Source: an uncultured Candidatus Saccharibacteria bacterium (GTDB lineage Bacteria > Patescibacteriota > Minisyncoccia > Phycocordibacterales > JACOZG01). Taken from it: a stretch of 64,000 nucleotides of DNA. The stretch is taken from contig CAZQDR010000003.1 in NCBI GenBank assembly GCA_964591715.1, positions 269-64,268 on the forward strand, written 5' to 3'. Both the position numbers and the translations under genes were made by a program. Position 1 is the first letter of the stretch, and the number at the start of each line of letters is the position of its first letter. The notes below the pieces were generated by a model. That model searched no databases. It saw only the letters and a program-made list of their open reading frames with translations, and was not told the origin of the DNA. Positions 5,678 through 64,000 of this stretch are shown here, piece after piece.

Positions 5678-6934
5678 TCAAAATATTTCATGCCACAATC
5701 TTTGCCACCACGACGGGTCAGTTGGGAGTTCGACCATGGTCGCAGTGGCCGCCGGCAGTGAGCTTACTGACGGCGGTAAGTCTATTGTAGCAGTTTCTAA
5801 AACGACTGGCACCACTGTCGCTTCATAATCAGGCGATACTGCTACGGGTAGCGCTGGTGGGGCCAGAGATTGGAGTTGCCGCGCGAGCAAGGCGAGCGCG
5901 GCTCCTTGGGTATTCGTTTCCGCATAGACTCGCCCGTTCGGGGCCGCCAGCGACAACTGGTTCGCTACAGTCAAAAAAGGAATTTTAACGGAGCTGGCAC
6001 TATTCAAAATCGTATCTTCCGGCAGGATGATTTTTTTCTTGCTGTCGCCCAACTGCCAATTCCCTACATTTACCTCATAGTTAGAATTATTTTTTAATTC
6101 GACATAGGCTTGATCACCATCATTACCCGCCCTAATAGCTAGGACTGGTTCAACCACCGTAATTACCGTCCGCGCCACCGCCTCGTCACTACCCTGCCGA
6201 ACCGTTGCCACCACGTTATAAGTGCCCGGGAAGGCGTACTGGTGATCAACCACCTCGCGATAGGCGGCGACACCATCACCAAAGCTCCAGTGATACTCAA
6301 TTGGCGCCGCGTCATCAGCACCACTAACCACTGCCCGGAAGGGCAGTCCCGCCCCCACCGCCACTTGCCGCTTGCGACCAATTGATAATCCCAGCCCTAA
6401 TTTCTCCTTCGGATTAGAGAGGGCGACCTGACTTTGATGACTGGAGCTAATACCACCCGAAGTGGCCGTGCTACCAACAACACTTACGGCGGGTTCCTCA
6501 TCTGGGTCCGAGTCGCCGCCCGCGGCCGCGGGCGGCGCGTCCGCGCTCACCGTAATTGGCTGCGAGGTTTGCCAGCTTTGACCACTCGTGCGCCCGGTTA
6601 CCACCACCTTAATGGTATACGAACCGGCCGTGGAATCGCGGTAGAGAAAATTGCGATTGGCCGAATTTTTGCTCATTGTTGTCGTTACCGGATTACCGCT
6701 AGTACTTAAAAATTCGCCCGTCGCTGACGTACTGGTAAAAGTCAGATCAGCCGTCTCGGTAATATTTTCTTTAACTCCCGCATTATTTTGGGTTTGCACG
6801 GTAATCGTCGCCGAACTCGCCCCTGGCGCAATCGTTTGCGGCTCGGTAGTAAAGACCACTCCCGCTACCTCTGCCCGCACCAAAACCGGCAGGAGGAGGA
6901 TGAGTCCCACTGCCATCACGTGTTTGTAGTTCAT
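5678..6934 (-). CDS. secreted protein with PKD domain and lamin-tail (LTD) domain
   Basis: signal peptide; HWSFGDG...YNVVATV PKD hallmark; AYVELKNNSNYEVNVGNWQLGD LTD-like. Confidence 0.7.
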   Translation of the reverse strand: MNYKHVMAVGLILLLPVLVRAEVAGVVFTTEPQTIAPGASSATITVQTQNNAGVKENITETADLTFTSTSATGEFLSTSGNPVTTTMSKNSANRNFLYRDSTAGSYTIKVVVTGRTSGQSWQTSQPITVSADAPPAAAGGDSDPDEEPAVSVVGSTATSGGISSSHQSQVALSNPKEKLGLGLSIGRKRQVAVGAGLPFRAVVSGADDAAPIEYHWSFGDGVAAYREVVDHQYAFPGTYNVVATVRQGSDEAVARTVITVVEPVLAIRAGNDGDQAYVELKNNSNYEVNVGNWQLGDSKKKIILPEDTILNSASSVKIPFLTVANQLSLAAPNGRVYAETNTQGAALALLARQLQSLAPPALPVAVSPDYEATVVPVVLETATIDLPPSVSSLPAATATMVELPTDPSWWQRLWHEIF

Positions 6935-14701: not shown

Positions 14702-15277
14702 ATGGCGTCAATTGATTATAGTGAGGTAAAAGAGCGCCGCCACATCGTTTTGGATGGCGAACCGTACGAAGTTTTATCAAGCCACGTCTTTCGCAAACAA
14801 CAGCGCAAGCCGGTTAATGCGACGAAATTAAAAAACCTGATCACCGGCAAAGTGCGCGAGCACTCGTTCCACGTTAGCGATCAGGTCGAAGTGGCCGAAC
14901 TGAACGAGAAAGAAGTAATTTATTTGTATAATCACCGCGGTGAGTTTTGGTTTTGTGATGCCAGCAACAAGTCTAATCGCTTTGAACTGCCCGACAAGCT
15001 GGTTGGCGAACAAATGAAGTTCACCAAACCCAACACCACGATCTCCCTGCTCTCCTTTGGCGACCTGCCGATTGGCGTTAAAACGCCCGTGAAGGTGGAG
15101 TTGCGGGTAAAAGAGGCCGCGCCAGCCGTTAAGGGCAACACCGTCCAAGGTGGTACCAAACGGGTCATCCTAGAGACCGGCGCCGAGATGGACGTCCCAA
15201 TGTTCATTAACGAAGGTGATGTTTTGGTCATCAATACCAACACCGGCGAGTACGTTGAACGCTTAGGTAAGAAGTAA
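14702..15277 (+). CDS. efp: translation elongation factor P
   Basis: 191 aa; EF-P N-terminal KOW-like GKVREHSF region and OB domains. Confidence 0.85.
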   Translation: MASIDYSEVKERRHIVLDGEPYEVLSSHVFRKQQRKPVNATKLKNLITGKVREHSFHVSDQVEVAELNEKEVIYLYNHRGEFWFCDASNKSNRFELPDKLVGEQMKFTKPNTTISLLSFGDLPIGVKTPVKVELRVKEAAPAVKGNTVQGGTKRVILETGAEMDVPMFINEGDVLVINTNTGEYVERLGKK

Positions 15278-15289
15278 ACCTCTCTCACT

Positions 15290-15338
15290 AAAAAACCGCC
15301 CCGTTAAATCTGAACAAATTTAACGGGGCGGTTTTTTA
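15290..15338. terminator. bidirectional rho-independent terminator between efp(+) and rpsR(-)
   Basis: 15-bp stem accgccccgttaaat/atttaacggggcggt flanked by A5 and T6. Confidence 0.8.
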
Positions 15339-15344
15339 GTTGAC

Positions 15345-15545
15345 TTAGCGTGAGATGAACGGCAAGAGTGCCAAATGACGAGCGCGTTTTACTGCCTCGG
15401 TCAGCTTGCGCTGGTGGTTAGAGCAGTTGTTTGAGCGTTTGTGATTAACAATTTTGGCGTACGGATCAATAAACTTCTTTAAAAGTTCAGTGTCCTTGTA
15501 ATCAATATACTTAATATTATTCGTGCAAAAGTGACAGTATTTCAT
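15345..15545 (-). CDS. rpsR: 30S ribosomal protein S18
   Basis: 66 aa; ...KRSNNCSNHQRKLTEAVKRARHLALLPF S18 C-terminus. Confidence 0.9.
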   Translation of the reverse strand: MKYCHFCTNNIKYIDYKDTELLKKFIDPYAKIVNHKRSNNCSNHQRKLTEAVKRARHLALLPFISR

Positions 15546-20828: not shown

Positions 20829-22112
20829 CTATAGTCGCAGAAGCGACTCAAACCTCGCCCCCTCCCGCTCAGGGCCAATCAAAGCCAGATTAAGTGCCTC
20901 GGTTTTGAAGATTCGGCGAGCCACTGCCTTGATCTCCTTGGCAGTCACCGCCCGAATTTTTTTGGCGATCAGCTCTGGGGATTCTAGTTTACCCTTTATA
21001 ATTTCCTCGGTGCCAAAAAAGCCGGCTAAACTTGAGGAGCGCTCGAGCCCCAAAAACAGGGAGCCGATCATCGACTCTTTGACCCGCTCCAGTTCAACGG
21101 CTGGGACCAAAGTCTCGGTTAGCTTGCGGCATTCAGCTAAAATAGCGGTAATAATTTCGTCAACCCGCTTGGTGTCTGAACCCACCGCAATCTCTAAAAC
21201 CCCGTGATCGGTATAGGTATCATTTTCGGCTCGGACATAATAGGCGGCGCCCAATTCCTCTCTAATTTTGAGAAACAAGCGCGAGCTCATTCCCCCACCA
21301 AGCACTGCCGCTAAAACATCGGCCGCGTCCGACTCGGGGGCGGTTGCGGAGAAGGTTCGCACCCCTAAAATCAAATGGGTTTGATCAGATTTTTTGTATT
21401 CTACTCGGTACTCAGGCTTGGTCTGCTTTTCGATCACGGCTGGTTTAGATAAATTAGGCCCAGACGGGATGGTCTTAAACTGCTTGGTGATCTTTTTAAT
21501 CATCGCCGCTTCGTTAAACTTACCCGAGACCACCACCACGGTGGCAGGAGCAACATAGTGGTTAGCCTGGTAACGCAAAAAATCCGCTCGAGTAAAACTT
21601 TTGACAGTCTCCTTGGTGCCCAAAATTGATCGCCCTGCTGGCTGATCACCGTAAAGTAGCGCGAGGAAAAGTTGGGCCACTCGATCGCGTGGCATATCCT
21701 CATACATATTTATTTCTTCCACGATCACCCCAGATTCCTTTTTTATTTCCACTTCGGGAAAAGTGGAGTTCAAATACATGTCGGCAATAATATCTAGCGC
21801 CCGATCCACCAGCTTGGGCTGAACCGTGGCGTAGTAGCCAGTGTACTCCTGCGAGGTAAAGGCATTGTAATTGGCACCTAAACCATCAAGCTCGGTCGAA
21901 ATGTCGGCCGCCCGGGGTCGGCGTTTGGTCCCTTTAAAAAACATATGCTCTAAAAAGTGCGACAAGCCGCCCTCGGCCTTGGACTCGTACTTGGAACCAG
22001 TCTCGGCTAAAACTAGAACATTAGTGGCCAGCGCCTCTGGCCGGGGAATCGTAATAATACGCAAGCCATTCGGCAACACCCTTTTATTAAAATTGGTCTT
22101 AGATTTTGGCAT
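20829..22112 (-). CDS. M16-family zinc peptidase (insulinase-like)
   Basis: 427 aa; HFLEHMFFKGT inverted zinc motif HxxEH. Confidence 0.85.
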   Translation of the reverse strand: MPKSKTNFNKRVLPNGLRIITIPRPEALATNVLVLAETGSKYESKAEGGLSHFLEHMFFKGTKRRPRAADISTELDGLGANYNAFTSQEYTGYYATVQPKLVDRALDIIADMYLNSTFPEVEIKKESGVIVEEINMYEDMPRDRVAQLFLALLYGDQPAGRSILGTKETVKSFTRADFLRYQANHYVAPATVVVVSGKFNEAAMIKKITKQFKTIPSGPNLSKPAVIEKQTKPEYRVEYKKSDQTHLILGVRTFSATAPESDAADVLAAVLGGGMSSRLFLKIREELGAAYYVRAENDTYTDHGVLEIAVGSDTKRVDEIITAILAECRKLTETLVPAVELERVKESMIGSLFLGLERSSSLAGFFGTEEIIKGKLESPELIAKKIRAVTAKEIKAVARRIFKTEALNLALIGPEREGARFESLLRL

Positions 22113-22149
22113 GCGCCTAGACTACCATACTTATTAAATTTTAGACAAA

Positions 22150-22412
22150 AAAAATAGCCCCGTCATTCTTCTGAAGAATGTGTGGTCGGAGCTGGTGTCG
22201 CGCAACATGGTTGCGAAGAAGGTCTTAGTGCCTGTTGGCTAGCCCTCATTTAACGTATCTGCGTCGTGGCCTGCGGTGGTGATACGTGACTCTTACGTAA
22301 CCGCAGGGGTACTACTACAAACCCTTATTTACGCCTCTGCCGTCTAGGACCACTGGGCTTTGGCGGGTCTGCCAGCGCCAGCACTTGATGTGCTTCGGCT
22401 GGACATGTCTGA
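22150..22412 (-). ncRNA. candidate structured ncRNA of unknown class (~265 nt), bounded by promoter and terminator
   Basis: no ORF >=60 aa; minus-strand TTGACA-16-TATACT at 22417-22444; 3' hairpin cattcttc/gaagaatg + U8 at 22141-22175; several internal stems (e.g. CUGCGGU...ACCGCAG). Confidence 0.45.
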
Positions 22413-22416
22413 TGGC

Positions 22417-22444
22417 AGTATAGCATAGCCACAATTCTTGTCAA
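22417..22444 (-). promoter_or_regulatory. consensus sigma70 promoter TTGACA-16-TATACT
   Basis: seen directly. Confidence 0.55.
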
Positions 22445-22477
22445 GTATTTTCAGGATTGTTAATGACGACACAAGAA

Positions 22478-22500
22478 AAACGGCTCTGCTGGGCCGTTTT
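22478..22500 (-). terminator. terminator of glyQS (acggc-loop-gccgt + T5)
   Basis: hairpin flanked by A5/T5. Confidence 0.6.
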
Positions 22501-22518
22501 TGGAAGGGTGATTTTTAA

Positions 22519-23832
22519 TTAGGCTAGCTTAGCCGCTAGTTCAGAGATTTTGACCCGGGTTTGCTCACCAGTATCGCGATCGCGGAGCGTGACCGTGTTT
22601 AAGAGGTCAGGGTTTTCACCGAGAGTATCGAAGTCGATGGTCACGCAGTAAGGCGTCCCAATCTCATCCTGGCGGCGATAGCGCTTACCAATATTGCCAT
22701 TATCATCAAAAATAGCTACTAGCGAAGAGCTTTCAGCTTTTAGCTTTAAATACACCTCGCGGGCTTTAGCCACCAACTCCGGTTTGTTTTTTAAGAGCGG
22801 GAAGACGGCCACTTTAATAGGAGCAATATTTTTACTTAATTTAAGATAGACCCGCTTTTCGCCACCCAGTTCGTCCTCGCGATAGGCATCCACCAGTACC
22901 GCCAAGAAGGTTCGATCCACTCCGAGCGATGGCTCAATAACATGGGGCATAAAACGTTCACCGCTAGCCTCATCAAAGTAGGACAAATCAACCCCACTAT
23001 ACTCCTGGTGCTTCGACAAATCATAGTCGGTCCGATAAGCCAAACCATAGAGCTCTTTGCGACCAAAACGAAAATCAAATTCACAATCACTCGTTCGCTT
23101 GGAGTAATGCGCCCGCTCCCCGTCCTCAACTTCAAGTTCATGAACCGAGTCGCGATCCAAACCAATTAGATCGATCCACTGCCACATTAAGTTCCGCCAC
23201 AGTTCAAAATTATTCTGCCAATCAGCCTCGCGAGTAAAATATTCTACCTCCATCTGCTCCAGCTCCCGCACGCGGAAGATAAAATCCCGCGGCGTAATCT
23301 CGTTGCGGAAAGCTTTGCCGATTTGAGCGATACCGAAAGGTAATTTAGGATGAAACGAATCCACCACATTTTTAAAATTCACGAAAATTCCCTGCGCTGT
23401 TTCTGGTCGCAAGTAGGCGGTAGCCGCGGAATCATCCATCGCTCCCACCTTAGTCGAAAACATCATATTAAACTGACGGGCCTCGCCTAGTGCGCCGCCA
23501 CAGTCCGGACACTTATCACTCTCTAGTTGATCGGCGCGGAAGCGACGCTTGCACGTGGTACACTCCACCAATGGATCGGCAAACCCGGCCACGTGTCCCG
23601 AGGCCTCCCAAACTTTAGCGTTCATGAGCAGGGCCGCATCCAAGCCAAACATCTCCTCGCGGTCGGTCACAAAGAGCTTCCACCAGGCATTTTTAATATT
23701 ATTCTTTAGCGCGACGCCCAAAGGACCGTAATCCCAAGTACCGGCTAAACCACCATAAATTTCCGAGCCTTGATAGACAAAGCCGCGGCGCTTGGCTAGG
23801 CTCGAGATCTTCTCCATTAGTTCAGGGTTCAT
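22519..23832 (-). CDS. glyQS: glycyl-tRNA synthetase (alpha2 dimeric type)
   Basis: 437 aa; RRGF.YQGSEIYGGL..WDYGPLG class II GlyRS N-terminus. Confidence 0.9.
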   Translation of the reverse strand: MNPELMEKISSLAKRRGFVYQGSEIYGGLAGTWDYGPLGVALKNNIKNAWWKLFVTDREEMFGLDAALLMNAKVWEASGHVAGFADPLVECTTCKRRFRADQLESDKCPDCGGALGEARQFNMMFSTKVGAMDDSAATAYLRPETAQGIFVNFKNVVDSFHPKLPFGIAQIGKAFRNEITPRDFIFRVRELEQMEVEYFTREADWQNNFELWRNLMWQWIDLIGLDRDSVHELEVEDGERAHYSKRTSDCEFDFRFGRKELYGLAYRTDYDLSKHQEYSGVDLSYFDEASGERFMPHVIEPSLGVDRTFLAVLVDAYREDELGGEKRVYLKLSKNIAPIKVAVFPLLKNKPELVAKAREVYLKLKAESSSLVAIFDDNGNIGKRYRRQDEIGTPYCVTIDFDTLGENPDLLNTVTLRDRDTGEQTRVKISELAAKLA

Positions 23833-63605: not shown

Positions 63606-63784
63606 CTCTAGACTCCTAATTTGAAGGAACAATGTGTCGAATGTTTATTGAGCCCAACACGTTGGCTCACAGGATCGAATGATTCTTGCTTTTACTATTA
63701 TATCTTTATTCCAGTTTTTTGTCAATAGCTCGGGTAGAACTAAAACATGCCTTAAAATAAGGCTAGATTGGAGAAAATTATCGC

Positions 63785-63800
63785 TGGGTGCCCACTAGGA
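63785..63800. repeat. duplicated tRNA 3'-end segment (tgggtgcccactRgga), partner 63962-63977
   Basis: 15/16 identity. Confidence 0.6.
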
Positions 63801-63963
63801 CGCTTCGCTATCTCACATCGCTTCGCTCCTACAAACCCCTCGGTTTGTATTGTTCCGCCACGGGGAACTAATGTTCCCCGACCCCCTCCTTGTTCTATTC
63901 CCACTGGGGCCCAACAGCGAAACACAAAACGACCCCTCGTAATGAGAAGTCGTTTTGGTTTTG

Positions 63964-64000
63964 GGTGCCCACTGGGAATCGAACCCAGATTGAGAGATCC
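63964..64000 (-). tRNA. 3' portion of a tRNA gene running off the window edge (identity unknown)
   Basis: minus strand reads ...CTGGGTTCGATTCCCAG (T-arm) TGGGCAC C (acceptor + discriminator); anticodon outside window. Confidence 0.6.

Follow-up and report, generated by a model that had tools for sequence, protein, structure and literature searches.

The stretch of DNA analysed here, called the window, is 64,000 nucleotides long (1-64000). Nearly all of its genes are on the minus strand, and its GC skew is steadily negative. The part of interest lies within a conserved gene order consisting of a surface protein gene (DUF11/CLIPPER-like), glyQS, the gene of an M16 peptidase, an AI-2E transporter gene and metG. 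The best matches of the glycyl-tRNA synthetase (GlyRS) encoded by glyQS are 65-74% identical and come from MAGs labelled Parcubacteria, Paceibacterota, Candidatus Saccharibacteria and related candidate phyla, and we read the organism as a member of the Patescibacteria/Paceibacteria (CPR). Between glyQS and the M16 gene a first-pass annotation had placed a minus-strand RNA, with a promoter at one end and a terminator at the other, in which there is no open reading frame. Pfam identifies both neighbours as named there, and the unit is intergenic between them. As judged from the signals at its two ends it is a genuine promoter-to-terminator unit without a protein gene.

The promoter is of the sigma-70 type and covers positions 22417-22444 on the minus strand. 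The -35 box TTGACA (22444-22439) is followed by a spacer of 16 nt which ends in TG (22425-22424), and the -10 box TATACT is at 22422-22417 (TGcTATACT). The first-pass annotation called it a consensus promoter, and it is close to that, with 11 of the 12 consensus positions matched plus the extended -10, and it is the top site in a scan of 5 kb. The 64-kb window contains four sites with at least 11 of 12 positions, where dinucleotide shuffles would lead one to expect 0.65. Since each of the remaining three is found just upstream of a minus-strand gene, consensus sigma-70 promoters look functional in this organism. Transcription would start at A22410, 7 nt past the -10 box.

At the other end there is an intrinsic terminator (22147-22193, minus strand) with a two-tier stem followed by an A and eight U residues (22154-22147). 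AGCUCCG (22193-22187) pairs with CGGGGCU (22162-22156) around the inner hairpin CAUUCUU-CAG-AAGAAUG. The folding energy is -13.6 kcal/mol (z -3.6), and not one of 200 shuffled sequences was equally stable, so that the claimed hairpin (22193-22156) with its U8 tract holds up. A simple terminator scan did not report this hairpin, which we read as a consequence of the internal loop. The transcript predicted from these signals runs from 22410 to 22147 on the minus strand and would have a length of about 264 nt (255-265), with the 3' end within the U8 tract; we infer that the unit is transcribed into an RNA of ~260 nt with several hairpins.

The glyQS gene ends at 22519 and is directly followed by a terminator of its own (22476-22501, minus strand; inverted repeat I5), which has the form AAAAACGGC-loop-GCCGUUUUU and a folding energy of -10.6 kcal/mol. 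The -35 box of the unit begins 31 nt beyond it. This terminator is conserved in the related locus L085 with a local alignment score of 19-19.5, which was reached by none of 500 and none of 300 shuffles in two comparisons, and it probably insulates the unit from transcription coming from upstream.

On the downstream side the M16 gene is preceded by an element resembling a promoter, TGgTAGTCT, 6 nt and ATG (22110-22127, minus strand), which is of a leaderless type and lies outside the unit. The arrangement TGnTAGTCT-N6-ATG is conserved in the related loci L081, L085 and L086 and is visible in L058, L090 and L091. The tail of the unit terminator together with TATGGTAGTCT-N6-ATG is conserved between the window, L081, L085, L086 and L058, and the 3' half of the unit terminator with its U-tract is homologous to the terminator tail of L081 and L058. 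Looking at the box itself among the relatives, we find TGnTA(G/A)(T/G)CT exactly 6 nt before the ATG and no Shine-Dalgarno sequence in L081 (2980-3003), L085 (2978-3003) and L086 (2975-3003), and the box is found in L058, L071, L090 and L091 too; the arrangement is different in those relatives in which M16 adjoins glyQS without a slot insert. This suggests that the box is an extended -10 promoter of the M16 gene which gives a leaderless mRNA in this clade of Paceibacteria.

The position of the unit raises the question of a cis-acting leader or attenuator of the M16-AI-2E-MetRS operon, in which the terminator would be the expression platform, as in a riboswitch or a T-box. The terminator ends only ~35 nt before the M16 start codon on the same strand, and a UUCUUC at about 22218-22213 is a second copy of the terminator's 5' strand and a potential competitor for GAAGAA (repeats D1 and I2). 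This alternative pairing is however weak, and a classical antiterminator would be located on the other side. The M16 gene appears to have its own leaderless-type promoter between the terminator and the ATG, and because of this the unit would not be the leader of M16; in relatives the same promoter is preceded by unrelated cargo or by no cargo at all. Like riboswitch and T-box leaders, the unit is predicted to be a structured RNA with a length of a few hundred nt, and it ends in an intrinsic terminator shortly before an operon with an aminoacyl-tRNA synthetase gene, metG. It differs from them in that the downstream gene has a promoter of its own, that the element is absent from relatives having the operon, and that no family matches: no aptamer or specifier core of the curated riboswitch and leader families is recognised in the body of the RNA, and no cis-regulatory Rfam family matches at E<=10. 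We consider a leader function very unlikely. With the glyQS terminator upstream and the M16 promoter downstream the unit would be insulated on both sides, and thus be neither a 3' UTR nor a leader.

The first-pass annotation found no open reading frame of at least 60 aa in the unit, and there is indeed none on either strand. Three minus-strand frames of 39-42 aa all begin upstream of the predicted transcript start at ~22410. Within the transcript only two frames have a start codon, one of 20 codons (22344-22406, minus strand; MSSRSTSSAGAGRPAKAQWS), which is the sole one near the 5' end and would have a leader of ~4 nt, and one of 28 aa with its AUG at 22247. Could one of them be a small-protein gene? 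The clade appears to use leaderless starts, M16 being an example, the slot of the relatives carries protein genes of 30-90 aa, and the first AUG is only ~4 nt past the predicted start of the transcript. Neither frame, however, has a Shine-Dalgarno sequence, unlike the genes of this genome and the slot genes of the relatives, which use AGGAG-type sites, and the 20-aa peptide is a low-complexity sequence rich in Ser, Ala and Gly. When the six frames of the unit were joined as a pseudo-protein and compared with 5.8 billion proteins no match was obtained at E<=10. A hidden Markov model of the 235/251-aa protein family found in the slot of relatives gave negative bit scores against the six frames, and the slot peptide family of ~32 aa matches the window at chance level only. 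A conserved small frame with a ribosome-binding site, the finding which according to the first-pass annotation would speak against a non-coding RNA, was thus looked for and not found in the unit. A small protein would also leave ~190 nt of structured RNA as 3' UTR. The 20-codon frame is considered not coding, and the chance that either frame is a gene is in our opinion slight.

Small genes may be overlooked elsewhere in the window. At 41590-41330 (minus strand), in a gap of ~400 nt which would seem non-coding at an ORF cut-off of 120 aa, there is a small open reading frame with an AGGAG Shine-Dalgarno sequence and its ATG at about 41574, and other gaps of ~400 nt in the window may likewise be sites of small genes.

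Folding of the unit was analysed on the single sequence. Both the minimum free energy and the centroid structure predicted for the body consist of five or six successive hairpins. The first (H1, 22373-22401, minus strand) is predicted as CCAGC / AGCAC-loop-GUGCU / GCUGG, and the segment 22402-22371 has a folding energy of -15.2 kcal/mol (z -2.5). The second (H2, 22317-22372) is a long irregular stem GCAGACCC ... GGGUUUGU. The third (H3, 22270-22307), predicted as CCUGCGGU-UACGU-AAGAGUC-ACGUA-UCACC-ACCGCAGG, is the most stable internal element with -16.9 kcal/mol and z -3.8, none of 200 shuffles being equally stable. Three short hairpins (H4-H6) are predicted between 22202 and 22265. H1 and H3 contain the two internal stems already pointed out in the first-pass annotation (CCAGC...GCUGG and CUGCGGU-[UACGU..ACGUA]-ACCGCAG), and they fold as it described. 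The body without the terminator (22410-22195, 216 nt) has a minimum free energy of -74.4 kcal/mol (z -2.8). In a scan of the window by tiles it is number 25 of 580 with z -3.3, and the opposite strand has z -1.4. By these calculations the structure is above background, but moderately so (z about -3), and not exceptional.

The strongest outliers of the tile scan, with z -5 to -8, are found at 15155-15374, 63775-63994, 5695-5914, 41115-41334, 43095-43314 and 44195-44414. None of these six tiles has a match in Rfam. Inspection of two of them (15280-15340 and 41270-41240) showed bidirectional terminators with long stems, which adjoin small open reading frames.

The Rfam scan proposed in the first-pass annotation was carried out with the 4227 families of Rfam 15, at gathering thresholds for the whole window and in E-value mode to E<=10 for queries of 801 nt and 275 nt around the unit. 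At gathering thresholds there are no matches in the entire 64-kb window. At E<=10 there is none within the unit with the 801-nt query and none at all with the 275-nt query; the 801 nt contain a sole match, to ALIL with E 3.1, which falls within glyQS on the opposite strand. Rfam has no match in 16 related loci either, and ARAGORN found no tRNA or tmRNA in the window and nothing in 18 related loci. The unit therefore matches no family known to Rfam, even at E<=10. The first-pass annotation could match it with neither tmRNA nor RNase P RNA nor SRP RNA, and we agree that it is none of these three.

The individual classes can be dealt with briefly. A tmRNA has a tRNA-like domain, with an acceptor stem ending in ACCA and a T-arm, and a tag reading frame. 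It is ruled out by the negative ARAGORN result in the window and the lack of an Rfam match at E<=10, and the string AGCUCCGACCA, which resembles the 3' end of a tmRNA, is explained as the ascending 5' strand of the unit terminator, its GGGGCU partner lying 3' of it. A permuted tmRNA was rejected as well, as nothing but the U-tract and the M16 promoter comes after the GGGGCU partner. RNase P RNA has a conserved P4 helix and the CR-I/CR-V motifs, which are represented in the RNaseP_bact_a/b models; no Rfam match was obtained at gathering thresholds or at E<=10, and by eye there is no partner to a P4-like 5' strand. Bacterial SRP RNA, small or large, is characterized by domain IV (helix 8), which carries a GNRA tetraloop along with conserved loops, some symmetric and some asymmetric. 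None of the predicted hairpins has a GNRA tetraloop, and no SRP RNA family matches at E<=10. Nor does the unit look like a MITE or the remnant of an IS element, as there are no terminal inverted repeats at its boundaries and it is present in a single copy within the 64-kb window.

The first-pass annotation considered that the RNA may be 6S-like. The 6S RNA (RF00013) is a rod in which the 5' and 3' ends are paired and a large central bubble mimics an open promoter. The unit is like it in being a putative non-coding RNA with a strong promoter of its own which looks highly expressed. Unlike 6S RNA, its predicted fold is multi-branched, with neither an end-to-end closing stem nor a central bubble, which is a weak argument because the fold is a single-sequence prediction; no 6S family matches at E<=10, and, although a housekeeping regulator of RNA polymerase should be conserved between related genomes, nothing similar is present in the syntenic slot and flanks of 92 related loci, the closest relative among them. 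The suggestion is not supported, and the unit should not be annotated as 6S or another known RNA. One may still imagine a housekeeping RNA (6S, SRP, RNase P or tmRNA) so divergent that the Rfam models miss it in CPR. RNAs of CPR bacteria can be divergent, and a size of ~215-260 nt together with a strong dedicated promoter would be typical. Against this stand the lack of any match among the 4227 families at E<=10, the negative ARAGORN search and the fold which is not rod-like. Moreover a protein gene occupies the site in the closest relative, and no similar sequence or structure is seen in any relative; since the unit is specific to one strain it is unlikely to be an essential RNA. We regard this possibility as extremely improbable.

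What occupies the corresponding position in relatives is of importance for the interpretation. The M16 gene is directly downstream of glyQS in 37 of 80 species representatives. In about half of these 37 the two genes abut or overlap (gap at most 50 nt), and the rest have inserts of 110-2800 nt containing protein ORFs. The junction between glyQS and M16 is thus a variable insertion slot. In the closest relative (L081-L084) the M16 protein is 96% and GlyRS 94% identical to that of the window. A blastn comparison of the window with L081 gives 89% nucleotide identity up to 22547 and 84% from 22161 on, with nothing aligned between, so that the segment 22162-22546 (minus strand) is a replaced cargo region. 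In place of the unit L081 has a GC-rich ORFan gene of 235 aa with its own promoter and terminator. The slot of L085, whose M16 is 69% identical, contains a homologous gene of 251 aa (E 7e-13) and in addition a decayed, duplicated C-terminal fragment of a paralog. L090 has two mini-modules of 32 aa and 49 aa, L091 and L092 have a gene of 74 aa, and in L086, L088 and L089 the slot is without cargo. The cargo proteins of the relatives belong to no family in Pfam, PADLOC, PHROGs or NCBIfam.

The -35 region ACTTGACAAGAA of the unit promoter is common to the slot promoters of L085, L090 and L091. The promoter sequence of the window, ACTTGACAAGAATTGT, is identical to that of L090, ACTTGACAAGAACTGT, in 15 of 16 positions; as 21 of 300 shuffles score as high, it is mainly the position that is shared. 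The slot promoter of L091, GATTGACAAGAAAATT, is similar to that of the window, and the -35 box of the L085 slot is 31 nt from the homologous glyQS terminator, exactly as in the window. The slot promoter therefore appears to be conserved across the clade of the window while the cargo differs.

Relatives of the RNA body itself were sought in several ways. No homolog of the ~215-nt body was found in the 92 related loci with nhmmer, blastn, tblastx or Smith-Waterman alignments with shuffle controls. The only parts common to the window and these loci are the promoter, the glyQS terminator and the tail upstream of M16, and beyond the shared promoter and terminator parts no alignment of the window with a slot was above shuffles. 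A covariance model of H1-H3 built on the single sequence (R1) found only itself, both in a search of 778 kb and in one of 46 kb with the filters off. A metagenome scan for a pattern made of the H3 loop and R/Y-degenerate stems gave no relevant match; its single match, antisense in an apparent histidine-kinase gene, has only a 22-mer in common with the unit and was rejected as chance. Four viral pattern scans and blastn against phage and plasmid collections gave nothing relevant, and exact-protein look-ups of the GlyRS, M16 and AI-2E proteins of the window for sister strains found none on record. Among all sequences sampled the unit seems to be specific to this genome. It has no relatives, and in related genomes the slot holds unrelated small protein genes; it is therefore a strain-specific orphan rather than the representative of a conserved class of RNA. 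The earlier label "lineage-specific" is hence overstated: no relative carries the unit, the closest one has the 235-aa protein gene in the slot, and others have small protein genes there.

The interpretation that we prefer, tentatively and with a rough probability of 0.4, is that the unit is a stand-alone, strain-specific non-coding transcript, an orphan sRNA, in a hypervariable accessory slot. The near-consensus sigma-70 promoter conserved in the slot would start transcription at ~22410 and the intrinsic terminator would end the transcript at ~22150. The product would be an RNA of 255-265 nt which is predicted to fold into five or six hairpins and which is presumably insulated by the glyQS terminator on one side and the leaderless-type M16 promoter on the other. 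If it has a function, the RNA would act in trans as an orphan sRNA, because the unit appears to be neither a 3' UTR nor a leader.

Several observations argue for the orphan sRNA. Promoter and terminator are both intact and of a quality exceeding chance. The unit has no ORF of at least 60 aa, no start codon linked to a Shine-Dalgarno sequence and no protein match at E<=10 in any frame. Folding is strand-asymmetric, with z -2.8 to -3.3 for the minus strand against -1.4 for the plus strand. The neighbours have their own signals, glyQS the terminator conserved with L085 and M16 the conserved TGnTAGTCT-N6-ATG, and in L085, L090 and L091 the slot promoter ACTTGACAAGAA is found again before differing cargo. 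Finally, no coding remnant of the protein families of the relatives is seen, despite flanks that are 84-89% identical to the nearest relative.

The same promoter is on the other hand used by the small protein genes of the relatives, which fits equally well with a transcribed relic. This second interpretation postulates that the ancestral slot promoter and terminator have been kept, that the protein cargo has been lost or replaced by non-functional sequence, and that the RNA does nothing. The promoter drives protein genes in relatives (251 aa in L085, 32 and 49 aa in L090, 74 aa in L091), and by parsimony the 235/251-aa family occupied the slot before the lineage of the window split from L081. 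Decay in the slot can be seen directly in the duplicated C-terminal gene fragment of L085. The GC content of the body (55.6%) is raised toward that of the slot cargo genes (60-61%) compared with flanks of about 49%. The body is unique to this genome, so that neither covariation nor a sign of selection on the RNA speaks for a function, and its structure score is moderate, values of z -5 to -8 being found for plain terminators at other places in the window. A search for target-site complementarity among 59 start regions within the 64-kb window gave no outlier either, 28% of shuffled RNAs being as good as the real one. A relic would however be expected to look different in some respects. With flanks that are still 84-89% identical to L081, pieces of open frame ought to be recognisable after a recent deletion, and a remnant of the known slot proteins is detectable in no frame; stops are found in every frame with a spacing which by our estimate is about random. 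The intact state of both signals, the promoter with its 11/12 plus TG and the terminator, also speaks against a relic. A relic is quite possible, and the two interpretations stay close.

The orphan sRNA can be compared with systems that are better known. The unit has an independent promoter, an intrinsic terminator and no coding ORF, the features by which a trans-acting sRNA gene is recognised. It resembles stand-alone trans-acting sRNA genes in its dedicated promoter, its several hairpins, the terminal hairpin with a U-tract and its position in a variable accessory region; such genes are in bacteria often strain-specific or island-borne. They are typically 50-200 nt long, and the unit is longer than most (~260 nt). 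It also differs from them in that no seed or target pairing was identified, that no homologs were found and that the host is a CPR bacterium. A second comparison is with the ORFan cargo of intergenic hot spots. The unit is in the exact slot of the ORFan modules of the relatives and shares their promoter, and these modules each have their own promoter and terminator, but the cargo of the relatives encodes 32-251 aa whereas that of the window has no ORF. We conclude that the unit is of a known kind, a stand-alone intergenic unit of the sRNA type in an accessory slot, which belongs to no known family.

A more far-reaching proposal would be that the junction between glyQS and M16 in Paceibacteria is a promoter-anchored modular cargo site at which strains exchange protein and RNA modules, and that the window has as its cargo a structured RNA which is functional and represents a new class. 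If true, the RNA could for example be an accessory riboregulator, or the RNA part of a system by which an episymbiotic CPR bacterium interacts with others or defends itself. We find this unlikely. The body is known from one sequence, which precludes an analysis of covariation, and it can therefore not be called a new RNA class. The present outcome is an element which is real but an orphan. A literature search for non-coding RNA in CPR/Patescibacteria found nothing relevant, and a strongly expressed, strain-specific sRNA in Paceibacteria would, if confirmed, be a useful first example. A conserved promoter with swappable cargo could also be a model for the turnover of accessory genes and RNAs in tiny genomes.

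Some minor observations concern the slot in the relatives. The ORFan family of 235-251 aa is found in L081 (2162-2869), in L085 (1425-2180, with the fragment at 2447-2566) and in L014 (2865-3614), and it adjoins glyQS in several Paceibacteria. Its genes have 60-61% GC against about 49-54% in the flanks, and the proteins have the C-terminal motif GGHLD.EN.T ... W..RD.R.A.GRARE.V. The motif of ~32 aa, T[LM][DE][DE][VI][KR][DE].A..G...A..F[LM], is present in three slot lineages, at L058 5386-5478, L090 2505-2600 and L091 2811-2906 (equal to L092 984-1079), which find each other in reciprocal tblastn searches with E 0.004-0.01. It is either a free-standing mini-gene or the C-terminus of the 74-aa ORF, and nothing in the window corresponds to it. 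L090 (2700-2765) and L091 (2610-2685) have a hairpin-like element in common, AAGCUUUGUGGCUUAGC, in the 5' UTR of their second slot gene, and this element may be a conserved leader structure. The sequence in the window nearest to it is GGGCUAGCCAACAGG (22244-22230), which bears a weak resemblance.
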